Shown here piece after piece: positions 20-12,041 of a DNA stretch of 13,911 nt. Position numbers and translations under genes: made by a program. The DNA lies in the IMG/VR virus record IMGVR_UViG_2609459774_000004. One strand, written 5' to 3'. The notes under the pieces were generated by a model. The model did not search any database. It had not been told where the DNA came from and worked only from the letters and a program-made list of their open reading frames with translations. The stretch's first letter is position 1; every line of letters starts with the position of its first letter. This DNA comes from a virus (lineage: Duplodnaviria > Heunggongvirae > Uroviricota > Caudoviricetes).

Positions 20-1315
20 TTAATTTTTCATTGCTTCGTTATGGGGCATGGTTGGGGCAAACTCGCTTAACTGTGTATTTAACAAAGCTACCTGTGCATT
101 ATTGTTTTCAGACATCCATTTTCCGTATACCTGAAATACCATTTGCGCATCTGCATGGCCCATCTGGTTTGCTATAAATGCCGGGTTAGCACCAGCTGTC
201 AGCGACCAGCAGGCATAAGTATGTCTCGACTGATATGATTTTCGATGGCGGAGTCCGGCACGTTTTATCGCTGCGTCCCACATCTGCCTTATTGAGTCAA
301 CGGTAAAATGGTCACCATAATTTTTTACTCTCGCTGACACTTCAGGTTGAAAAACAAAGGTGCATTTTTGTTTTTCTGTTCTGCCATACTCTCTGAGGTG
401 AACATCAATGATATGCTCTTTGCTCAGTCTCGTTAATGTCATCTGACTCCGGAGAGCGTCGATTGCTGGCTTAATAAGATGAATGACCCGATTGGTTCCC
501 GCCTGTGTTTTTGGTACCGTGAAACGGTCTTTTGCTAAATTTCTCCTGATCATCATTGTTCCATTTTTCAGATCTATGTCCTCCCATCCAAGTGCACACA
601 GCTCACCAGGGCGAACTCCAGTATAAACAGAAACACACCATAAATTTTTTGCTTGCTGATTTCTGCACGCATCGATAAGACGGATAAATTCTTCCCGCGA
701 AAGAGGATCCGGAATGGTTCTTGATTCCTTTAATGGCGAGATCCCCTTAAACGGATTATCTGCCAGGTAACCGTTATCAACACCAAACTGGAACACGGCG
801 TTAAGATTTGTCATGTAATTATTTACAGTTACAGCCGATCTCCCTGGTTGTGTAACAATATAGTTACTTTTGGGGATCTGGTATCCAGTCAGTAACTCTT
901 TACGAACCTCCAGTAATTTTTCTTTATTAATCGATGAGGCAAGATTTTTTTCACCGATTATGCTCAGGATATTTTTGATGACGGCACGGTATGTGTTGAG
1001 TGATGTTTTGGCGACTTCAGTTTCTTTCAGTGCCAGAAATTTTTCAGCCAGTTCTTTTATGGTTAAATCTTGTCGGGCCTCACCAAATTTTTCCAGATTG
1101 CGTGAGGAGGGAAACTGTTTTGCATAGTCGAAAACACCAGTTTTTATTGCGTAACAAACAGAGGAGCGTAGTTCACCTGCAACGCGCCTGTTTTTTGCTG
1201 TGTCAGGAACCCCCAGATTTTCCCTGACTCTTACGTCTTTATAAACAAACCAGATACGTAATTTCCCTCCATGGTTTTCCACGCCTGTCGGATATTTCAT
1301 TTCAACTTCTCTCAT
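20..1315 (-). CDS. Tyrosine-type phage integrase (site-specific recombinase), 431 aa
   Basis: Long minus-strand ORF from the track. C-terminal region carries the tyrosine-recombinase catalytic pattern (HRKSYQSRHTY with H-x-x-R, downstream Tyr in QVYGKW). Sits at the prophage end next to an excisionase-like gene. The second Met (MKYPTG, start near 1300) is an alternative start. Confidence 0.9.
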   Translation of the reverse strand: MREVEMKYPTGVENHGGKLRIWFVYKDVRVRENLGVPDTAKNRRVAGELRSSVCYAIKTGVFDYAKQFPSSRNLEKFGEARQDLTIKELAEKFLALKETEVAKTSLNTYRAVIKNILSIIGEKNLASSINKEKLLEVRKELLTGYQIPKSNYIVTQPGRSAVTVNNYMTNLNAVFQFGVDNGYLADNPFKGISPLKESRTIPDPLSREEFIRLIDACRNQQAKNLWCVSVYTGVRPGELCALGWEDIDLKNGTMMIRRNLAKDRFTVPKTQAGTNRVIHLIKPAIDALRSQMTLTRLSKEHIIDVHLREYGRTEKQKCTFVFQPEVSARVKNYGDHFTVDSIRQMWDAAIKRAGLRHRKSYQSRHTYACWSLTAGANPAFIANQMGHADAQMVFQVYGKWMSENNNAQVALLNTQLSEFAPTMPHNEAMKN

Positions 1316-1334
1316 TAGTTAGTGTGGCTTTTAG

Positions 1335-1586
1335 TCAAGTAAGATGACGTCTTGGTCTCGCTGATGCCTGGCGCTCAATCCAGCGATCAATTTCTTCCAG
1401 GTTGTAAAAGCATGGACTGTTATCCCATGGCATACCGTCATGAGCGACATGCTTATATTCCCTTCCTTCCATAAACGATTTTTCCCGGGCCTTTTTTAAC
1501 GTACCTTTTTTTATTCCTTTCAGCGCAATTAACTGCTCTTCGGATACCCATTTGCCGGGAGAGACAATCATGATTACTTCGCTCAT
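1335..1586 (-). CDS. Excisionase-like small DNA-binding protein (83 aa)
   Basis: Small basic ORF immediately upstream of and co-oriented with the integrase (19-nt gap), the classic xis-int arrangement. Function inferred from position and size only. Confidence 0.55.
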   Translation of the reverse strand: MSEVIMIVSPGKWVSEEQLIALKGIKKGTLKKAREKSFMEGREYKHVAHDGMPWDNSPCFYNLEEIDRWIERQASARPRRHLT

Positions 1587-1658
1587 CGATTTCTTTATCT
1601 CTTACATCAGACGAGCGCCGGTTGCAGAATACCAGTCACAACCGGCGACAGTTGAACA

Positions 1659-4130
1659 TTAAGAATCAGCCTGACTCGGGATCAGTTTTTGCCAGATAAC
1701 TGAAACGTATTTTGCCTGGTAACGGGCGTCATCAAGTGCATTATGGCGCTCACCTTCGAATGGAATAGCCGTTCTGGCATCGAAGTCTATGGCTTTCCCC
1801 AGCTCAACGATTGTGCGTACATCGCGATCGTTGTAGTAACGCCACGGGCAGGGGATCCCCTGCCGTTCGTATGAACGGCGCAAAATCGTGTTGTCGAAGT
1901 TGGCTCCATTTCCCCAAACCTGAACAAAAAATTCACCGGAGTTTTCGTCGATAAATTCTCGCAATTGTAACAGTGCATCATCTAACGGGATTTCATCGGT
2001 CATAATGGCAGATTGCGCTTCGCGTGATTGCTTAAGCCACCATTTAATGGTGTCCCGATCAATGACTCCGCCAGCAGTTTCCAGATCGATAGTCTTACTA
2101 AATTCCGGTCCCATATCTCCGGTTTGCGGATCGAAAAATATTGCACCTATTGAGATGATCGGGGCATCAGGATTTTTTCCCATGGTTTCAAGGTCGATCA
2201 TTAGATGGTCACACGTCCTGCTGGTGGATGTGATTTCGTGATGACCGTTCACCTTAATTGGGTGATCTGCCGTCTCGCCAGTTTCATTATCGCTATTGTG
2301 ATGCTGATTGCCGCCAGTGTTCTCCTTGTGTGGATGTTCAGCGCCTTCCATTTCCTCCGGATCATCTTCCTGAACTTCAACCTGATACTCTTCATCGAAT
2401 GTTTCTTGGTATGTTGCGTCGCCCATCACCGCGCCACAATCAGGGCAGTTGCCGCCGCCGGTCTGACCGCAGGCGGTGCAGACTTTTTCCACTTCCTGTT
2501 GCGCTACTGGTTCAGGCTGTTTCGTTTCTGGCTCGTTTTGTAACGCATTTGGACTGTTTTGTTCCGCTTTTTGGTAGTTCCGTTCCGATTCATGCTGGTT
2601 CTGGTTCACAGAATCGCGGGTCTGGAGCCCCTTAACCCATTTCGGATCATTCGGGTCACTAATCCCTTCAACAAATTCACCACGTGATGCAGCAAGCAAC
2701 TTATCGGCGTCAGGCTGGCTGATATTGGCTGCCTGCATAATTTTGTTTACTTCGTCAGCGGTAACTTTTATCGGCTCTGGTTGTTCTGAATCTTCAGCGG
2801 TATCTACATTTTGCGGTAAGCCCGTGTATGTGCCATTTTTTCGGGCAAAATATTCTTCTTTTGTGATTTCAGTGGCGCCAGCAGCCAGTGCCTTATCCAG
2901 ACCAGAGAGTTTGTTTGCGCGACCGTATTTTTCTCCGTCCTTATCTGCGAAGAGGAAATAGAACGGCCCCTCACGCTCTACAGATGGTTCAGCTTCCGGC
3001 GCGGTTTCATTTTTTGGGATATCAGATACCTCAGTTTCCACTGCATCAGTTTGTGTTTCTGATGACTGGAGAACATCAACAGTGCCCAGGTCTGTTTCTT
3101 CATTCTCAAACACGCCCTTTGTCGTCAGGTATTCGCAGATATATTTGTTCAGTGCTACGGGATCTTTGTGAATGTCGATCGGACGCTCACGGACAAGGCC
3201 AAAAATAGTTTGGCGGTCGTAGCGAAGGGCATCAGGCTGTTTGCGCATTGATGCCGAGATACGCTTCCAGTCTTCGCGGTCGTTGTCGATAACTTCTTTT
3301 TTTGCCCAGCGATGGATGCTGCCGTCAATGTTTCCGGCATCCACATCACTAGGCCAGAGAGCGTAGGCCAGTTCGTCATCCAGTGTTTTCCATGTCTGCT
3401 TGTATTCGCGATGAATGGCAGCAATGACCGGGCTGATTTTTCCTGTTGAATTTTCAGTGTACTGTTGATTGGCTCTGGCGCGGGCGAGATCAACAACAGA
3501 CGTGTATTTTCCGGTTTCCTTGCGTTCACCTTCGCGACGTTTTTTCCAGATGCGCATCTCTGCCTGAATTTCGGGCCATTTAGCACCAGGAATACATTTA
3601 TGCTTAACCCACCCAATGGCGTGCAACTTAAGCTCCGGATACATGGCGTTAACTTCTGGCATTTTCATCAACGCTTCAACGATATGTCCGTCGAATGTTG
3701 CCATGTCTTCCTGCAACAATTCCTGTGCGCTAATAACCATATCAACGGTGATGTTTTCACATGTGTCGAACTTAACCATGACAGCGTTCTGTACTTCAGG
3801 GGCCAGCTTGTCAAAAGTGACGTTCATCGGATCGGATTCAGTCTCAACCGGGACAAAAGAAGCAGACTCCTCATCCCAGCGGTTTTCCTGCATATATTCA
3901 GCATCCCATGAATCGAGGGCAGGGCGGGGTATGCCAGGTTTATCCTCGCAGACAATAAATTTATAAGCGCAGTCCTGAGCAGCCGGATAATGTTCCAGGA
4001 ATTGCCAGTGAAATTTTGCTCGAGCACGGCGTTCGTCGCCAGCTTCAATGGCTGTGGCTACAGCCACAGCGCCTTCTTCCCTTGTTGCCAGTTCGTCAGG
4101 AATAGCGGCGCAAATAAAGACTTTACTCAT
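1659..4130 (-). CDS. Exonuclease VIII-like protein with C-terminal DEDDh (DnaQ-like) 3'-5' exonuclease domain; 823 aa from the ATG at 4130 (frame open to TTG at 4166)
   Basis: Track ORF 1659..4166. The ATG at 4128-4130 (MSKVF) has a GAGG Shine-Dalgarno 9 nt upstream. The C-terminus shows three DEDDh motifs (LMIDLETMG; VWGNGANFDNTIL; HNALDDARYQAKY). The centre has a CxxC-x10-CxxC ribbon (CTACGQTGGGNCPDCG) flanked by acidic and His-rich low-complexity linkers. By position this corresponds to the gene that K-12 Qin retains only as the IS2-truncated ydfE remnant. Confidence 0.8.
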   Translation of the reverse strand: MSKVFICAAIPDELATREEGAVAVATAIEAGDERRARAKFHWQFLEHYPAAQDCAYKFIVCEDKPGIPRPALDSWDAEYMQENRWDEESASFVPVETESDPMNVTFDKLAPEVQNAVMVKFDTCENITVDMVISAQELLQEDMATFDGHIVEALMKMPEVNAMYPELKLHAIGWVKHKCIPGAKWPEIQAEMRIWKKRREGERKETGKYTSVVDLARARANQQYTENSTGKISPVIAAIHREYKQTWKTLDDELAYALWPSDVDAGNIDGSIHRWAKKEVIDNDREDWKRISASMRKQPDALRYDRQTIFGLVRERPIDIHKDPVALNKYICEYLTTKGVFENEETDLGTVDVLQSSETQTDAVETEVSDIPKNETAPEAEPSVEREGPFYFLFADKDGEKYGRANKLSGLDKALAAGATEITKEEYFARKNGTYTGLPQNVDTAEDSEQPEPIKVTADEVNKIMQAANISQPDADKLLAASRGEFVEGISDPNDPKWVKGLQTRDSVNQNQHESERNYQKAEQNSPNALQNEPETKQPEPVAQQEVEKVCTACGQTGGGNCPDCGAVMGDATYQETFDEEYQVEVQEDDPEEMEGAEHPHKENTGGNQHHNSDNETGETADHPIKVNGHHEITSTSRTCDHLMIDLETMGKNPDAPIISIGAIFFDPQTGDMGPEFSKTIDLETAGGVIDRDTIKWWLKQSREAQSAIMTDEIPLDDALLQLREFIDENSGEFFVQVWGNGANFDNTILRRSYERQGIPCPWRYYNDRDVRTIVELGKAIDFDARTAIPFEGERHNALDDARYQAKYVSVIWQKLIPSQADS

Positions 4131-4222
4131 TTGTTTTAACCTCATGACAGATTTAAGGATGAACAAATCCCTGCCATTGCTGGCATATAAGAATGAAACC
4201 GGATATTTATTACGGAACTGTT

Positions 4223-4414
4223 TTAAAGACCTGCCGGGATTTCGATATTATCCTGGTGAATAACTTTATCGACCGGGTAACAGTTACCGGGAATTTTCTG
4301 TTCGGTTGCTGCAGTCATACACTCCTGCATTGTCCTGTGAACACTGACTGCAATATCAACTGGCTCTCCGGAAACAAGAAAAACTGTCAGAACAAGCACA
4401 AATGCTGAATTCAT
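4223..4414 (-). CDS. ydfD: YdfD-like small lysis protein with N-terminal hydrophobic (transmembrane/signal-like) segment, 63 aa
   Basis: Internal Met of track ORF 4223..4468 (MNSAFVLVLTVFLVSG...). Its ATG overlaps the dicB stop as ATGA, implying translational coupling. Length (63 aa), N-terminal hydrophobic helix and position directly downstream of dicB match Qin ydfD. Confidence 0.65.
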   Translation of the reverse strand: MNSAFVLVLTVFLVSGEPVDIAVSVHRTMQECMTAATEQKIPGNCYPVDKVIHQDNIEIPAGL

Positions 4415-4599
4415 TGTGCACATCCTTTTGGCATCAGACGTAAACGAGCCAGCATTGAAACAATGCATATTTTATTTAATAGCTCCCGTTCTTGTTTTCT
4501 CTTGTTAATGGCATCTTCAGTAAATACTGGGTTACTGATAGTGACACCAATTTCAAAACAACCTTCAGACGTATTAACGTTTGGTAATAACGTTTTCAT
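4411..4599 (-). CDS. dicB: DicB cell-division inhibitor (MinC-dependent), 62 aa
   Basis: Internal Met of track ORF 4411..4704: MKTLLPNVNTSEGCFEIGVTISNPVFTEDAINKRKQERELLNKICIVSMLARLRLMPKGCAQ. GAGGA Shine-Dalgarno 7 nt upstream. Length, sequence and position downstream of the DicF sequence fit DicB of the Qin dicB operon. Confidence 0.8.
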   Translation of the reverse strand: MKTLLPNVNTSEGCFEIGVTISNPVFTEDAINKRKQERELLNKICIVSMLARLRLMPKGCAQ

Positions 4600-4768
4600 T
4601 ATCGCGTCCTCAACAATGAATTTTGTGATGCAGTGCCTGGTGCCTCCAGGTGATGTTAACCAGTTAACAATTAACGCCGGATACAGAGAATCCACCCATA
4701 ACACTGTTTTTGGTTTTAACTGTTCCGCGTGCGCTCAGCCGCATTCACCACATCACAAAATTCACTTT

Positions 4769-4826
4769 AAAAAGGGCGGCAGAGCAGTCACGGAGTAAAA
4801 CTGATACCGCCAAACGTCACCAGAAA
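4769..4826 (-). ncRNA. dicF: DicF small regulatory RNA (53-nt body 4774..4826 plus U-tail)
   Basis: Minus-strand sequence UUUCUGGUGACGUUUGGCGGUAUCAGUUUUACUCCGUGACUGCUCUGCCGCCC followed by UUUUU matches DicF as I recall it, including a GC-rich 3' hairpin and U-tract. Located between ydfC and dicB as in Qin. Confidence 0.75.
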
Positions 4827-5166
4827 ATTGATAACAGAGGGCGTTGCAGCGGGGTTGTCACTTAAGCGTATGGTCAACCTGACAACCCGGTGTCCTCAAC
4901 GGGGAAGGAATACCCCCGCCATACTTACCGCCGCGCCATTTCGCGGGTTGCCACAACCGGAAGCGCACGGTCGACGAAAATTTAACGACAGGCTATCTAT
5001 GAACCAGCTACCTCGCCGTGCGCTTTCGCGTTATGGTCTGACTTTTCAGGGAAATATCCTTTCAGTAAACTGTCAGTTCCGGATGCGCACCCGTGTCCGG
5101 CGCACGCACTCCACCTCACCCGTGGAGAACTCCTTAATTACTAACCTTAGCTTTGTTGATTAGCTA

Positions 5167-5385
5167 CTAACGCGGGTATGTAATCATTCTGGCAATGCTT
5201 AATGCCGCTGCTTTTTCCAGATTGGTGATATCCTGCTCCAGAGCGGACAGATTTTCAGCCTGCTTAGCCCTGGCTTCATTAGCCCATTTCAGATCCTGCG
5301 CTGCATTAATTTTCTGGCGCATCCACTCATAAAGTTCATCATCGGTATAGTCTGGCGCGATGATGACGGGTTCTCGTTTCTGCAT
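5167..5385 (-). CDS. ydfC: YdfC-like small protein, 72 aa
   Basis: Track ORF with AGGA Shine-Dalgarno 6 nt upstream of the ATG. Length and position (third gene of the leftward operon after ydfA/ydfB) match Qin ydfC. Function unknown. Confidence 0.6.
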   Translation of the reverse strand: MQKREPVIIAPDYTDDELYEWMRQKINAAQDLKWANEARAKQAENLSALEQDITNLEKAAALSIARMITYPR

Positions 5386-5414
5386 ACTGATTCCTCGCGG
5401 TGCTGTTTCGCTTA

Positions 5415-5543
5415 TCAGCCGTTAGATTTTGCCGAACTGGAAAGCGCGTGTTTAAACTCACTGAAGCTGAGAGCTTCTTCGCCTTCGGCAAGGCCTTCGA
5501 AGTATTCTTCGTAAGCCTTTTCCATGATTGTGTCGAAATCCAT
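5415..5543 (-). CDS. ydfB: YdfB-like small acidic protein, 42 aa (below the ORF-track size cutoff)
   Basis: Hand-translated: MDFDTIMEKAYEEYFEGLAEGEEALSFSEFKHALSSSAKSNG. GGTGA Shine-Dalgarno about 5 nt upstream of the ATG, which sits 2 nt after the ydfA stop. The 42-aa length matches Qin ydfB. It competes with the overlapping basic track ORF 5339..5548. Confidence 0.5.
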   Translation of the reverse strand: MDFDTIMEKAYEEYFEGLAEGEEALSFSEFKHALSSSAKSNG

Positions 5544-5544
5544 A

Positions 5545-5700
5545 TCACTCACCTGAGTTTCTTTCCAGCCAGCGACGGGCACCATTTTCGGTTTTAAACG
5601 TTTTGCTTTTGGTATACGTCATTGCGGTGAACGTGCCGTCCTGGTTTGGAAACACGCCGTACACCAGAGATTCGTTGTTGCCAAGATCGATAGTATCCAT
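5545..5700 (-). CDS. ydfA: YdfA-like small protein, 51 aa
   Basis: Internal Met of track ORF 5545..5754 (MDTIDLGNNESLVYGVF...) with AGGT 5 nt upstream. First gene downstream of the pL-like promoter. Length 51 aa matches Qin ydfA. Confidence 0.6.
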   Translation of the reverse strand: MDTIDLGNNESLVYGVFPNQDGTFTAMTYTKSKTFKTENGARRWLERNSGE

Positions 5701-5777
5701 GCTGACCTCATTTCCCCTTAACGCCGGGGTAGCGGAACTGTTTGCTGAGAACACCGTGCGGTGTCTTGATGGAAAGT

Positions 5778-5833
5778 AATTTAGAATAACCTAACATGAT
5801 AGGCAAGTGTTTTTTGTTAGATTGGTCTAACAA
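5778..5833 (-). promoter_or_regulatory. Leftward early promoter candidate with two operator-like palindromes (OL)
   Basis: Minus-strand -35 TTGCCT (5801-5806) and -10 TAAATT (5778-5783) with 17-nt spacer. Perfect palindrome TTGTTAGA-ttgg-TCTAACAA at 5814-5833. Second site TTAGGTTATTCTAA (minus-strand reading of 5781-5794) repeats the 6277-6292 site at OR. Confidence 0.4.
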
Positions 5834-5868
5834 AAAGAGTGGGCGCAACTAATCACTTGAAAAGAATG

Positions 5869-6276
5869 TTATTTTATTGATTTATTTTTACGCGCTTTAA
5901 GCATTTCTTCGAAGAGTTTGTTGAAGTTTTCTACTCTTGCGCGCATTTCAGACAGCAAGGCTTCCTGCTCGGAAGATGGAAGAGCATCGAATAATTCGAT
6001 CAATTCTTTGTGGTTGGGAGTTAGCTCTGTTTCCACATGAAGTTCTTGTGCAGGCACTGGTGCCTTGTCTTCGTCACCAAACATTAGCCATGTAGGTGAG
6101 CACTTCAGAGCATCCGCTAAAGCAAACAATCGTTTTCCGACTGGCTGGGTTTCGTCTCTTTCCCATTGTGAAATTGTGACGTGAGCAACTCCAGCGAGGC
6201 GCGCAGCTTCTCGTTGTGTTAAGCGTAATTCTTTTCGTCGCGCCAGAACTCGCTGGCCTAGGGTTCTTGTATCCAT
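5869..6276 (-). CDS. dicA: DicA-type HTH (XRE family) prophage repressor, 135 aa, no S24 peptidase domain
   Basis: N-terminal HTH (LRLTQREAARLAGVAHVTISQWE). Divergent from a Cro-like gene across a 77-bp operator region. The 135-aa length matches DicA. C-terminal half is a short helical tail with no LexA-like Ser/Lys cleavage module. Confidence 0.85.
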   Translation of the reverse strand: MDTRTLGQRVLARRKELRLTQREAARLAGVAHVTISQWERDETQPVGKRLFALADALKCSPTWLMFGDEDKAPVPAQELHVETELTPNHKELIELFDALPSSEQEALLSEMRARVENFNKLFEEMLKARKNKSIK

Positions 6277-6353
6277 AGTTAGGTAATTCTAATTTTTCTT
6301 GACTTAGGTATCCCGCGCACAATAATGTTAGAAAAGTCTAACAAGAGGGGGCT
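6277..6353. promoter_or_regulatory. Divergent promoter/operator region between dicA and dicC (OR)
   Basis: Rightward -35 TTGACT (6299-6304), 17-nt spacer, -10 ATAATG (6322-6327). Palindrome TGTTAGA-aaag-TCTAACA at 6326-6343 overlaps the -10/+1. Second site AGTTAGGTAATTCTAA at 6277-6292 abuts the dicA start. Confidence 0.5.
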
Positions 6354-6356
6354 TTG

Positions 6357-6584
6357 ATGCTTAAAGTTGACGCAATTACTTTTTTTGGCAGCAAAACAAA
6401 GCTTGCCAATGCCGCAGGGGTGAGACTGGCAAGTGTTGCTGCTTGGGGGATACTGGTTCCTGAAGGTCGCGCGATGCGTCTACAGGAGGCATCTGGCGGG
6501 GAGCTTCAGTATGATCCCAAAGTTTATGATGAATATCGTAAGACGAAGCGGGCGGGGCGGTTGAACAATGAAAATCACTCCTGA
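6357..6584 (+). CDS. dicC: DicC / Cro-like (YdaS-family) small DNA-binding protein
   Basis: Track ORF 6354..6584 (76 aa from TTG). The ATG at 6357 has GAGGGGG 6 nt upstream. Protein MLKVDAITFFGSKTKLANAAGVRLASVAAWG... has a Cro/YdaS-like HTH pattern and is divergent from the repressor. Confidence 0.75.
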   Translation: MLKVDAITFFGSKTKLANAAGVRLASVAAWGILVPEGRAMRLQEASGGELQYDPKVYDEYRKTKRAGRLNNENHS

Positions 6585-6885
6585 ACAGGCTCGTGAGGCT
6601 CTGGATGCCTGGATATGTCGACCAGGAATGACACAGGAGCAGGCGACGATATTAATCACTGAAGCATTCTGGGCTTTGAAAGAGCGCCCGAACATCGATG
6701 TTCAGCGTGTCACATATGAAGGTGGCGCGATTGATCAGCGAGCGCTTGGCGTTAATCGAGTGAAGATATTTGAACGCTGGAAGGCTATCGACACCAGGGA
6801 TAAGCGTGAAAAGTTCACGGCGCTAGTGCCTGCAATTATGGAGGCTACAGATTATTCCTTACCTCGTGAGTTTTGCCTTTGCTGA
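6568..6885 (+). CDS. YdaT-like (CII-analog family) protein, 105 aa, probably C-terminally truncated
   Basis: Overlaps the dicC 3' end. Shares the ...ERWKAIDTRDKREKF..LVPAIMEA...LPRE pattern I recall from Rac YdaT (about 140 aa). Ends early and overlaps the next ORF by 20 nt in another frame. Confidence 0.55.
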   Translation: MKITPEQAREALDAWICRPGMTQEQATILITEAFWALKERPNIDVQRVTYEGGAIDQRALGVNRVKIFERWKAIDTRDKREKFTALVPAIMEATDYSLPREFCLC

Positions 6886-7333
6886 TTACTCCAGGTCTGC
6901 GGCAAGTAAGGCTCGCTGTGAGCATTGTTCAGGTACGGGATTTTATAATGTATTGCGCGAAGTGGTGAAACACTACAGACGCGGGGAATCTGTAATCAAG
7001 GAAGAATGGGTGAAGGAACTATGTCAGCATTGCCATGGTAAGGGCGAAGCCAGCACAGCGTGCAGAGGGTGTAAGGGTAAAGGGATTGTTCTGGATGAAA
7101 AAAGAACCCGGTTTCATGGCGTACCGGTATATAAGATTTGTGGGCGTTGTAATGGAAACCGGTTTAGTCGTTTACCGACCACGCTGGCACGACGTCATGT
7201 CCAGAAGCTGGTACCAGACCTGACCGATTATCAGTGGTATAAGGGGTATGCGGACGTCATTGGTAAACTGGTAACAAAGTGCTGGCAGGAAGAAGCATAC
7301 GCGGAAGCGCAATTGAGGAAGGTGACGAGATAA
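6866..7333 (+). CDS. Cys-rich zinc-finger ORF (four CxxCxGxG/R DnaJ-like repeats), 155 aa; possibly the 3' remnant of a Q-like late antiterminator
   Basis: Repeats CEHCSGTG, CQHCHGKG, CRGCKGKG, CGRCNGNR. Only a GTG start with no Shine-Dalgarno and no internal ATG; upstream in-frame stop at 6824-6826. It occupies the position of quuQ relative to cspF/cspB/essQ in Qin. Could equally be annotated as a pseudogene. Confidence 0.4.
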   Translation: MSFAFADYSRSAASKARCEHCSGTGFYNVLREVVKHYRRGESVIKEEWVKELCQHCHGKGEASTACRGCKGKGIVLDEKRTRFHGVPVYKICGRCNGNRFSRLPTTLARRHVQKLVPDLTDYQWYKGYADVIGKLVTKCWQEEAYAEAQLRKVTR

Positions 7334-7364
7334 ATGATTTTTGCTGAAGATGGCGACATGATGT

Positions 7365-7393
7365 TTGCATTTTTCAAAAAATATGGATAAAAT
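7365..7393 (+). promoter_or_regulatory. Near-consensus sigma-70 promoter (TTGCAT-17-TAAAAT), candidate late promoter (pR'-like)
   Basis: -35 TTGCAT at 7365-7370, 17-nt spacer, -10 TAAAAT at 7388-7393, about 30 nt after the Cys-rich ORF stop, where lambdoid late promoters sit. Confidence 0.45.
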
Positions 7394-7437
7394 TTTTTCA
7401 ACGATGGGCTTTGTATACCCGACGTTAAGAAAAAGTA

Positions 7438-7463
7438 GAAAACCTGCTGATGAGCGGGTTTTG
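7438..7463 (+). terminator. Hairpin with U-rich tail about 45 nt downstream of the candidate late promoter (tR'-like)
   Basis: AAAACCUGC-ugauga-GCGGGUUUU: 6-bp core stem with one G-U pair, extended by A/U pairs, followed by a G then more Us. Weak as an intrinsic terminator. Confidence 0.35.
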
Positions 7464-7754
7464 TGCTTTAAATGGGGCAATGGTAATGTTGAATCTCATC
7501 CCGGGACTCATGTCTGTTAACTTATTATTTAGCTGGTGACTTGGTTATTTGCCTGATGTTTAAAATGTTTTCTTCCAGTACAATGTCCCTAAACACAATG
7601 AGTCTGCTTATTATATTATTAGCAGAGCTATTACGGCCAAAGTACAGCATAAGCTTTTAAAGCCAATCAACCAGTCATCAAGACAGACGGGGTTATTCAT
7701 AAAAACTCTCCATGTGTGATCCGATGGGGCCTGAAATTAAAGCTTTAATATAGC

Positions 7755-7967
7755 TCATGAAAGGTAAACATTGGCAGCTGAAGGGCCACGCAGACCATTT
7801 ATCCGGCAAAATTCCACGCGTAATCCGGTGGTAATTTCTTCTGCATCGCGGAGATTGAGCGCTGAAACATGAAGCTGGACATCGATACGACCATCGGATG
7901 GGGTGATAAGACCCTTGCCGCTTTTGCCGTCAAAGGTTTTGACAATTCCTGTCATTTTACGGGACAA
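7755..7967 (-). CDS. cspF: Cold-shock-domain protein, CspF/CspH subfamily, 70 aa
   Basis: [27 protein letters not shown]...[20 protein letters not shown] matches the CspF/CspH pattern I recall. Divergent from a cspB-like gene as in Qin. cspF versus cspH cannot be resolved by eye. Confidence 0.85.
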
Positions 7968-8267
7968 AAAAATTCCTTAATACTGATAACTTGGCGCACT
8001 ATACACACGTTCCTGAAGAAAGCTATAGTTTTTTGATGGGGTTGAAGATGGCTGGATGTCTAAAATAAACATTGCTTCATATGTTCAACTATGCGTTAAT
8101 GATTGCGTCGGTTTGAAGAACAGACGATATACGAAGTAGTTTACTAAAGCAGTTCTCATTTCAGGTGTTATTCACTTATTCCTTCTTTGAGTCTCTCCAA
8201 TTAAGTACGAAGTCGTTTCTGTTATGCAAACCATTTATGCCGAAAGGCTCAAGTTAAGGAATGTAGA
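7968..8267. promoter_or_regulatory. Divergent promoter and long 5'-UTR region between the cspF-like and cspB-like genes
   Basis: 300-bp AT-rich intergenic region between divergent cold-shock genes; cspA-family genes typically have long 5' leaders. No specific element mapped. Confidence 0.35.
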
Positions 8268-8483
8268 ATGTCAAATAAAATGACTGGTTTAGTAAAATGG
8301 TTTAACGCTGATAAAGGTTTCGGCTTTATTTCTCCTGTTGATGGTAGTAAAGATGTGTTTGTGCATTTTTCTGCGATTCAGAATGATAATTATCGAACCT
8401 TATTTGAAGGTCAAAAGGTTACCTTCTCTATAGAGAGTGGTGCTAAAGGTCCTGCAGCAGCAAATGTCATCATTACTGATTAA
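8268..8483 (+). CDS. cspB: Cold-shock protein CspB-like, 71 aa
   Basis: [67 protein letters not shown]... carries the RNP1/RNP2 motifs of the CspA family and the CspB-type variable residues. AAGGAA Shine-Dalgarno upstream. Confidence 0.9.
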
Positions 8484-8764
8484 AATTCATCGCTCGTCTG
8501 TATACGATAACGAAGAAGGCTGATGCCTGAGTAGAGATACGGACAGAGTAGTGAATATTGGATCTCTTTAATAAAAAGTAAGGAGGTCCAATACATGAAA
8601 CAATGGCTAGCATATTTGGCAAAATCTTAATCAGGAAAAGTATGCTAACCATTGTGGTGAAGTGCAGGTTTGCTGCATGAATAGTTTTACAGCAGAAGCT
8701 AACTGCTGGCATGGCAAAACAAAGTGCGTAAGTGGATGACTCCCACAAAAAGCACCACAATCTC

Positions 8765-10792: not shown

Positions 10793-11155
10793 GGTAATAT
10801 TAAATCGGAACATTTACATCGCGGAATGTAAAATTTAAATAAAAAGGACTCTTCCATGAGCCAAAATTCCTGAAATCTTAAGGGTAAGATAAAAGGTCTT
10901 AATCAGAATGACACGTTTTATTAATAAATAAAGCTATTCTTTCATTGCTGTGTTTTTCTTTACAAAAGTAATCCTTGCTATGGGTGGTTAATCATGAGTT
11001 AATGGTGTTCTGGTTTGTTACAAATTTATCTGAAGCAGTCATTGTTATAATTTTATTATTTGTACCTCTTGAGATTTCCTTGTTGGTTTTTCTCTCTGAT
11101 ATTTTTTTTTCGGACCATTCTGCCCAAGGGCTAATTTCTTCAAAAGGTAATAATT

Positions 11156-11368
11156 ATGTCTAACAAAATGACTGGTTTAGTGAAATGGTTTAACCCTGAA
11201 AAAGGTTTTGGTTTCATCACGCCGAAAGATGGCAGCAAAGATGTGTTTGTCCATTTCTCAGCAATTCAGAGCAACGATTTCAAAACATTAACTGAGAATC
11301 AGGAAGTTGAATTTGGTATTGAGAACGGACCTAAAGGTCCTGCCGCTGTTCATGTAGTGGCGCTTTGA
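11156..11368 (+). CDS. cspI: Cold-shock protein CspI, 70 aa
   Basis: [70 protein letters not shown] matches CspI of Qin as I recall it. Long AT-rich 5' leader upstream. Confidence 0.9.
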
Positions 11369-11567
11369 GGTAGACAATATTACAAACCATATTCACTTTA
11401 GATGCCCGTGTTGTCATGGTTCCCAGTATAGAACATCATCTTTTGATGTTTCTGACATGAATCCTTTCGGGGCAAAATGTATCTTTTGTAAATCAATGAT
11501 GATTACATTTGATAATATTTCACAATACTTAAATGTTAGCCATCTGTCGTTAGATTTAAGAAAGTGA
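11358..11567 (+). other. Candidate second small zinc-ribbon ORF (paralog of the 8847..9017 protein) with no canonical start upstream of its Cys motifs
   Basis: Hand-translated frame: ...HFRCPCCHGSQYRTSSFDVSDMNPFGAKCIFCKSMMITFDNISQYLNVSHLSLDLRK*. Cys spacing (C-x-CC ... C-x2-C, with SF in the linker) parallels the 56-aa protein. The only ATG is at 11457, after the first Cys cluster. The stop is 8 nt before the terminator hairpin. May be a degenerate paralog or use a non-canonical start. Confidence 0.25.
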
Positions 11568-11869: not shown

Positions 11870-12041
11870 TTTGATTCTAATGCATTGATAATAAATGATA
11901 ATCATCTTTATCTGTTTGTGTGAAATTTAGACCGTCGTATGTTGATTATTGCGATGTTTCATCTTATCTTTTATACGTTTGCTCCATATAATTGACACTA
12001 CTGTGTACCAGGACAGTCATAACAGACTAAAAGAGGAAATG

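Follow-up and report, generated by a model that had tools for sequence, protein, structure and literature searches.

What are the short inverted repeats that recur on both sides of a small repressor gene in this prophage DNA, and which protein reads them? The window, i.e., the whole stretch of 13,911 nucleotides that was analysed (IMG/VR record IMGVR_UViG_2609459774_000004), holds four such dyads around the gene of a 135-aa repressor, and the first-pass annotation had taken them for the operators of an immunity switch. That reading is supported by homology to the dicA/dicC pair of the Qin prophage of E. coli K-12 and by covariation across about 30 loci. We consider it very likely that a DicA/DicC immunity switch of the Qin type, P22-like in character, uses the four dyads as its operators. 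Several kinds of sequence evidence point in this direction: the site statistics, the gene content, the layout shared with K-12, the homology to P22 c2, the covariation with recognition helices and the boundaries of a diverged cassette. Switches of this type have already been described, and the window is a variant of the known Qin DicA/DicC system. Only one thing is new here, a common and probably heteroimmune allele with explicit predicted operator assignments, and the current understanding of lambdoid switches is unchanged.

Genes and state of the prophage

The repressor gene (5869–6276, minus strand) encodes a dicA-type protein whose only Pfam match is HTH_3 (residues 12–64, E 1.5e-14) and which aligns with K-12 DicA from end to end at 57% identity. 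At its N-terminus it has homology to P22 c2 (E 4e-18), confined to the N-terminal domain of c2; a helical C-terminal domain follows, with the motif LPxSE...FNxLFEExL, in which the C-terminal columns are invariant across 7 homologues. The divergent dicC gene (6357–6584, plus strand) encodes a P22-Cro-type protein of 75 aa (Pfam P22_Cro, PF14549, E 4.9e-12). It is 86% identical to K-12 DicC: the N-terminal HTH differs, and the C-terminal 45 residues are identical.

To the left of the repressor lies the operon under the putative dicB promoter, dicBp (4411–5700, minus strand), with ydfA (5545–5700), ydfB (5415–5543), ydfC (5167–5385), the sRNA gene dicF (4774–4825, minus strand; Rfam DicF match, 76.7 bits) and dicB (4411–4599). 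On this side, Pfam recognizes DUF1391 (ydfA) and DicB, and after dicB come ydfD, a large exonuclease gene, xis and int. On the other side, dicC is followed by a YdaT-like gene, truncated in the window. An identical locus in E. coli E94 adjoins rspB and carries the PGAP annotation ydfD-dicB-ydfC-ydfB-ydfA, HTH protein, Cro/CI regulator and YdaT pseudogene. Position and gene order are those of the cryptic prophage Qin (Kim) of K-12: the chromosomal site by rspB, the order int-xis-exo-ydfD-dicB-dicF-ydfCBA, dicA and dicC-ydfX, a DicA of 135 aa, a DicC of 75 or 76 aa, the TTGACT −35 element of the dicC promoter and a four-site layout at the same offsets are shared by both. By these comparisons, we are dealing with the dicA/dicC immunity region of an E. 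coli cryptic prophage of the Qin type. For K-12, Bejar et al. 1988 (cited in PMC10448788) already described this region as an immunity locus of the lambdoid type, in which the PR-like dicCp and the PL-like dicBp each have a set of operators. Components of the Qin-type module that are present here are DicA, a divergent DicC of the P22-Cro family, an Oc-type repeat on the −10/+1 region of dicCp, and a second operator set at dicBp.

The two prophages also differ. The left arm (int, xis, exonuclease) is intact here, while much of what follows dicC has been lost. Window positions 6501–6847 are 100% identical to the K-12 dicC-ydfX segment and positions 6846–7500 match, at 99.8% identity, an internal stretch of ydfT, the K-12 gene for the Q antiterminator, so that approximately 4.4 kb is missing relative to K-12 (ydfW, flxA, ydfV, relBE, hokD, rem, ydfU and the 5′ part of ydfT). 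Neither the window nor the 16-kb E94 locus gave a match in a tblastn search with K-12 Rem. As far as the gene content tells, the prophage is defective: rem and the replication genes are deleted, Q is truncated, and lytic growth is not within its reach. As antirepressor and replication genes are missing and Q is truncated, “induction” would here mean derepression of the dicB operon only. By the same gene content, the switch governs only the dicB/dicF operon, with exo-xis-int downstream.

Four dyads at two control regions

The four sites flank the repressor gene and share one design, an 18-bp 6-N4-6 dyad of the form TGTTAGR-N4-YCTAACA. Site A (5779–5796, minus strand) reads TGTTAGG-TTAT-TCTAAAT on that strand and is the predicted promoter-proximal operator of the leftward dicBp; site B (5815–5832), its predicted upstream operator, is a perfect palindrome, TGTTAGA-TTGG-TCTAACA, whose arms reach 11 bp (5811–5836). 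On the other side of the gene, site C (6277–6294; AGTTAGG-TAAT-TCTAATT) is Oa-type and OR3-like and abuts the dicA ATG (6276), and site D (6326–6343; TGTTAGA-AAAG-TCTAACA) is Oc-type and OR1-like, has perfect arms and is the proposed primary DicA site. Sites A and C each combine one consensus half (GTTAGG) with one AT-flanked half (TCTAAA or TCTAAT) and are 89% alike over 18 nt (GTTAGGTWATTCTAAW). The central 4 bp are all A/T in the imperfect A and C and contain G/C in the perfect B and D. Between C and D, an isolated half-site TTAGG (6304–6308, plus strand) overlaps the dicCp −35, midway between the two centres and 24–25 bp from each; this is where K-12 has its published “Om” site. The window scan recognized only this half of a site at Om and no third site at OL. 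Centre to centre, A and B are 36 bp apart, C and D 49 bp. Since neither distance is an integer number of helical turns, simple side-by-side cooperativity is not obvious.

Could such repeats have arisen by chance? In the 13.9-kb window, GTTAG-N6-CTAAC has 2 matches (5816–5831 and 6327–6342) where 0.01 would be expected, and TTAGR-N4-TCTAA has 4 (5781–5794, 5817–5830, 6279–6292 and 6328–6341) against 0.05 expected, a count reached in 0 of 200 shuffles. The concern of the first-pass annotation that the motifs might be frequent by chance is thus not borne out within the window, where no other full site occurs. With a 7-N4-7 weight matrix, the sites score 16.5 (A), 20.7 (B), 16.2 (C) and 20.7 (D), scores that are circular since the matrix was trained on these same four sites. 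The next-best position in the window scores 7.9, below the average maximum of shuffled sequences (11.3), which leaves no fifth full site there; further operators near the Q, int or csp genes, for example, were considered and discarded on the same grounds (7.9 versus 16–21 for A–D). Half-sites are concentrated as well: the 157 nt of control DNA contain nine TTAGR occurrences, where the density in the remainder of the window would predict 0.18. Simple arithmetic gives about 20 chance occurrences of TTAGR-N4-TCTAA in 5 Mb, counting both strands, so the significance of the sites lies in their clustering and position and not in genome-wide uniqueness.

Two outward promoters frame this arrangement. 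The PR analogue, dicCp (6299–6326, plus strand), was reported by a promoter scan with 10 of 12 consensus matches (TTGACT, 16-nt spacer, AATAAT, the −10 lying at 6321–6326) and aligns as the counterpart of the K-12 dicC promoter, whose +1 was mapped by 5′RACE (PMC3441716). The PL analogue, dicBp (5778–5806, minus strand), is putative and was read from the sequence and from its alignment with K-12: a −35 TTGCCT (5806–5801), a 17-nt spacer and a −10 TAAATT (5783–5778) match, base for base, the K-12 dicBp TTGACC-17-TAATCT. The consensus promoter scan did not report it, owing to its weak consensus match. Site A fills the dicBp spacer and overlaps its −10, with B upstream of the −35; site D abuts the dicCp −10 and covers +1, with C upstream of the −35 and on the dicA start. 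A −10-like TAGAAT on the minus strand (6291–6286) lies within C and may belong to a dicA promoter.

Against this layout, the picture drawn in the first-pass annotation can be refined. The GTTAGA/TCTAAC palindromes that it placed left and right of the gene are there, within 1–2 nt of the positions given (our B and D). Its second motif is also found on both sides (A and C), but it is not a separate motif, all four being variants of one 6-N4-6 design. The annotation had every site overlapping a promoter; this fits A and D, which sit on the outward promoter cores, but B lies upstream of a −35 and C on the putative dicA promoter and start. The proposed symmetry stands in that both the PL-like and the PR-like promoters carry sites, although the layout is not a mirror image relative to the promoters: the perfect site is in the core at PR and upstream at PL. 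Finally, a two-site logic agrees with two full sites per promoter, but the literature counts three operators per side in K-12 (Oa, Om, Oc), of which the middle one is reduced to a half-site here.

It could be argued that the palindromes are structural or fortuitous, site B, for instance, being the terminator hairpin of dicA. B does lie 33–37 nt downstream of the dicA stop codon and could fold into a 26-nt hairpin, but its stem is AU-rich, no U-tract follows, and the terminator scan did not report it; moreover, the K-12 counterpart of B is degenerate and unable to form such a hairpin. Chance is excluded by the site statistics together with the covariation described below. We regard structural or chance palindromes as very improbable and continue with the operator reading.

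Experimental work on K-12 bears on site D, the positional and sequence counterpart of K-12 Oc (TTGTTAGTCATAACTAACAA). Oc is bound by DicA in vivo (Yun et al. 2012, PMC3441716), one A-to-C change within its CTAAC abolishes binding, and DicA at this site represses dicC and activates dicA (PMC3441716). Reg-Seq also recovers this DicA site at dicCp and notes the binding location at dicB as unknown (PMC7567609). K-12 dicBp is repressed by DicA (PMC10448788). K-12 Oa and Om, when cloned alone, were not bound in vivo (PMC3441716). For this reason, site C and, by similarity, site A may be weak, need cooperative help or prefer DicC.

Related loci and the proteins that read the sites

If the dyads are operators, they should be found at equivalent places in related loci and should change with the proteins that read them. 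Besides the K-12 locus, our survey, oriented on dicA, drew on six loci from phages and 27 from the genomes of other species; with no motif given beforehand, it looked on either side of dicA for the k-N4-rc(k) core that fitted best. In this survey of 33 loci, sites occur at conserved offsets, approximately 65 and 16 nt upstream of the dicA ATG (sometimes also at about 40 nt) and approximately 40 and 75 nt after its stop codon. The counterpart of C lies 16–17 nt upstream of the ATG in nearly all loci, that of A 72–78 nt past the stop codon in related loci, where the A-B spacing is kept at 34–36 bp. Relatives such as PPompW have a fuller site at the Om position (CTTAGGTTTCTCTACG). In three loci (L017, L023 and L028), the survey gave no clear motif, and A/T runs confounded the motif-free search in four others (L005, L012, L027 and L035), the TTAGR sites of L005 being picked by eye.

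The core of the dyad changes with the recognition helices of both proteins. TTAGR, the core of this window, accompanies a DicA helix (A/S)HVTISQW and a DicC helix RLASVAAW or K(A/T)PTVYAW, and TTAGY goes with SHVSVSQW in DicA and RLASLYSW in DicC. Where DicA has S(G/D)SSISLW and DicC has DPSAVSQW, the core is TTGAG; with SSVSVFKW and SQVAVTRW, respectively, it becomes xTAAC..GTTAx. A fifth class, with SHATISLW or SYASISLW in DicA (DicC helix not tabulated), has TTAAG, which is the P22 core. This covariation is indirect evidence, albeit strong, that the dyads are operators of DicA and DicC.

The same covariation bears on the identity of the binder. A CII-like YdaT encoded downstream, or a host protein, might occupy the dyads instead of DicA and DicC: a YdaT-like gene does follow dicC, with the K-12 fragment, Yun et al. 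observed an extra band shift that did not depend on DicA, and H-NS/Cnu has an effect on the locus (PMC3441716). The published YdaT site, TTGATT-N6-AATCAA, is different (PMC9986795), the ydaT copy in the window is truncated, and where the downstream genes are identical, the operator core still varies with the recognition helices of DicA and DicC. Binding of the dyads by such another protein is, in our view, extremely improbable.

DicA and DicC themselves might divide the sites, the perfect B and D serving DicA and the imperfect A and C (GTTAGGTWATTCTAAW) being dedicated to DicC as the Cro. The strong likeness of A to C would suit such a division, as would the failure of K-12 DicA to bind Oa alone, the repression of dicA by overexpressed DicC in O157:H7 and the requirement of DicC for full dicBp induction (PMC10448788). 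Much of the extra similarity between A and C, however, is explained by the −10 hexamers embedded in both; they do not differ from B and D in the TTAGR/CTAA core or the 4-bp spacer, and A lies in the core of dicBp, a promoter that DicA represses strongly in K-12. In lambdoid phages, and in CP-933P as well, repressor and Cro share operators and differ in the order of affinity. We thus find a strict division into two site classes for two proteins unlikely and keep to operators shared by DicA and DicC. Which site each protein prefers, and any cooperativity or looping between sites, we infer from this analysis only.

Known phage switches offer further points of comparison. The immC region of P22 has a homologous DNA-binding domain in its repressor, a Cro whose Pfam family, P22_Cro, includes DicC, and operator sets at both PL and PR. 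The operator geometry is also the same: in the 18-bp c2 operator, positions 2–7 and 12–17 are contacted and the four central base pairs are not (PMC4267663), and the TTA-containing core falls at positions 2–7 of our sites; some members of the DicA family even use the P22 core TTAAG. P22 differs in having three full operators on each side. The CP-933P module PaaR2/YdaS/YdaT has its repressor gene at the same position, with a divergent Cro-like gene followed by ydaT (Jurenas et al. 2021, PMC8630535). Its operator sets were footprinted at both OR and OL, and it forms a bistable switch in a defective prophage (PMC8630535). PaaR2 has low similarity to DicA, though, its operator consensus (GTTTAGTAA repeats) and site number differ, and a toxin-antitoxin pair is co-transcribed with paaR2.

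The survey also bears on the start of dicA. A Shine-Dalgarno sequence precedes the likely start codon in none of approximately 24 distinct loci, and a −10-like hexamer lies 6–9 nt upstream of the ATG in most of them. From these two features, the dicA mRNA is probably leaderless or nearly so, as is that of lambda cI; the positionally equivalent paaR2 gene is leaderless as well (PMC8630535), in parallel with a dicA that has no Shine-Dalgarno.

The immunity cassette and its derepression

A sliding comparison with K-12 delimits a diverged block of approximately 700 bp (5765–6460) that comprises exactly OL, dicA, OR and the HTH part of dicC. Within it, identity to K-12 Qin is 48–82%; the flanks are 98–100% identical. 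A diverged block within near-identical flanks is the classical signature of an immunity swap, which is how we read this pattern. Inside the block, site B is a perfect palindrome (its K-12 counterpart is degenerate), and the half-sites differ at position 7: all TTAGR-class half-sites, including those of this window (TTAGA or TTAGG), have a purine there, and all K-12-class half-sites a pyrimidine (TTAGT or TTAGC). From K-12 to this window, the recognition helix changes from SHVSVSQW to AHVTISQW in DicA and from RLASLYSW to RLASVAAW in DicC.

We tentatively hypothesize that this cassette and that of K-12 Qin could be a natural specificity pair, distinguished by one contacted base pair per half-site (position 7) that is read by small helix substitutions, with the affinity of the site classes tuned through the uncontacted central 4 bp. 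The idea is possible but still doubtful. Indirect readout has been shown for the P22 repressor, in parallel with the proposed tuning by the central 4 bp of A and C versus B and D. If true, the two cassettes would be a compact model of the evolution of heteroimmunity with a non-cleavable repressor, and of a switch operating on two full sites at each promoter. Purine versus pyrimidine at one operator position is, in any case, a simple and testable specificity hypothesis.

How would such a switch operate? A DicA dimer with its P22-c2-like HTH would bind the 18-bp TGTTAGR-N4-YCTAACA sites. At D, on the −10/+1 region of dicCp, it would turn dicC off and stimulate the weak dicA promoter; at A, in the core of dicBp, it would silence the ydfABC-dicF-dicB-ydfD-exo-xis-int operon. 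The loading of A is probably assisted by site B, 36 bp upstream. Site C, over the −10 and start of dicA, may provide an OR3-like shut-off of dicA by DicC or by excess DicA, a role supported by the −10-like hexamer that it contains and by the lack of a Shine-Dalgarno sequence in the surveyed loci.

The first-pass annotation had pointed out that the repressor has no LexA-like autocleavage domain, and this is confirmed: Pfam finds no Peptidase_S24 match in the 135-aa protein, and the S24 domain with an Ala-Gly site by which the SOS-cleavable class (lambda CI, P22 c2, LexA) is recognized is missing from it. The lack of an Ala-Gly cleavage bond in DicA was noted for K-12 by Bejar et al. 1988 (cited in PMC10448788). 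P22 c2 differs in this respect: it is 216 aa long and carries an autocleavage domain that RecA stimulates. The C-terminal domain of DicA is of another kind, short and helical. Since DicA has no such domain, derepression would have to come from an antirepressor like Rem or those of the Gifsy phages, supplied in trans, or from a thermal or chemical destabilization followed by DicC feedback.

An antirepressor, or else another route, was also what the first-pass annotation had suggested. The suggestion agrees with published work: in K-12, the Qin-encoded antirepressor Rem derepresses dicBp 165-fold, mitomycin C does not induce it, and DicC is required for full induction (Ragunathan and Vanderpool 2023, PMC10448788). 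The copy in the window has no antirepressor gene of its own. DicA is listed by Lemire et al. 2011 among the homologues of the Gifsy repressors GfoR, GtgR and GfhR (PMC3121763), and the likeness to Gifsy-1, -2 and -3, all with short repressors devoid of a cleavage site, is taken from that statement and not from a sequence comparison of our own. The Gifsy repressors are inactivated by small LexA-controlled antirepressors that can act in trans even on heteroimmune repressors (PMC3121763). The window differs in having neither an antirepressor gene nor a credible LexA box. In a control search for LexA boxes, CTGT-N8-ACAG with at most one mismatch gave 5 matches in the window against 4.1 expected; the sole perfect one (12001–12016), with a GC-rich spacer, falls within a gnsB-like ORF.

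The products under this control, dicB and dicF, inhibit cell division and exclude some phages, which makes the annotation of the cassette of some practical value. Of 5,426 complete E. coli genomes, 566 (about one in ten) carry the cassette, labelled only generically, as “helix-turn-helix domain-containing protein” and “Cro/CI family regulator”; it also occurs in a phage record annotated as dicA/dicC, with 94% protein identity. A more specific label can now be given to the cassette: a DicA/DicC immunity module whose four defined, predicted operators control dicB and dicF. Moreover, the comparative map offers explicit candidate DicA sites at dicBp, for which K-12 databases give the location as unknown or of low evidence.

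As a side observation, the leader downstream of dicBp (approximately 5700–5770) is conserved across immunity types. Rfam gave no match in this segment, and RNAalifold predicts two short stems with one compensatory pair.

The dicA start and the operator centres

Among about 24 distinct loci related to dicA (L004-L033 of the comparative survey), a Shine-Dalgarno sequence ahead of the likely dicA start was found in none, and in most of them a -10-like hexamer is located 6-9 nt 5′ of the ATG. In the window, this hexamer (TAGAAT, plus-strand 6286-6291) falls within site C (6277-6294), one of the four putative DicA/DicC operators, and dicA itself starts at 6276. The absence of a Shine-Dalgarno sequence together with a -10-like hexamer so near the ATG suggests that the dicA mRNA is leaderless or almost so. 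This reading has a parallel in lambda cI and in paaR2, the repressor gene of CP-933P (PMC8630535).

The centre of site C is in part constrained by the embedded hexamer. The central 4 bp of the imperfect sites, A (5779-5796, TTAT) and C (TAAT), are all A/T, whereas those of the perfect palindromes, B (5815-5832, TTGG) and D (6326-6343, AAAG), include G/C. Since readout of the operator's central 4 bp by the P22 repressor is indirect, the composition of these centres could tune affinity across sites A-D.

A conserved leader ahead of ydfA

The leader of ydfA, first gene of the ydfABC-dicF-dicB operon, lies 3′ of the putative promoter dicBp (5778-5806, minus strand) and occupies about 5700-5770 on the minus strand. 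It is strongly conserved (CATCAAGA-CACCGCACGGTG-...CAGCAAACAGTTCCGC...-CCCCGGCGTTAAGGGG) and is common to loci with differing immunity types. Two short hairpins can be drawn in it, with only one compensatory pair, and a comparison with Rfam returned no match. The leader may be an element resembling nut or put, or alternatively one that acts in translation.

Prophage decay and retained genes

At about 6846-6847 a deletion junction links the truncated ydaT-like gene, which corresponds to ydfX of K-12, with the interior of the Q antiterminator gene ydfT; relative to K-12, about 4.4 kb is absent, comprising ydfW, flxA, ydfV, relBE, hokD, rem and ydfU. K-12, strain E94 and phage PhiR42_1 likewise have a boundary at this left breakpoint, which thus resembles a site of recurrent recombination. 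Within 20-4166, downstream of the dicB operon, the genes for the integrase (431 aa), the excisionase and an 835-aa exonuclease with a Rv2179c-like 3′-5′ exonuclease domain are apparently intact, whereas in K-12 Qin the left arm is interrupted by IS2 and intQ is a pseudogene.

Two cspA-thermoregulator leaders (Rfam; 8107-8499 and 11009-11395, plus strand) each precede a cold-shock-protein gene, and a third CSD gene lies at 7755-7967 on the minus strand; these genes and leaders match the Qin cspB/cspF/cspI cluster. A perfect CTGT-N8-ACAG (CTGTGTACCAGGACAG, 12001-12016) within a gnsB-like ORF was considered as a LexA box and rejected: it is probably a chance match, given a GC-rich spacer and a position that is not at a promoter.

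Records of the module under unexpected host labels

Phage BUCT708 (L009), whose recorded host is Stenotrophomonas, carries a DicA/DicC module of the enterobacterial type, and the operators of this module are TTAGA. Three MAG contigs (L013, L019 and L020), with the labels Collinsella, Bacillota and Veillonella, have E. coli-type dicA loci as well; the presence of these loci in Gram-positive or Veillonella metagenome bins is probably binning contamination.
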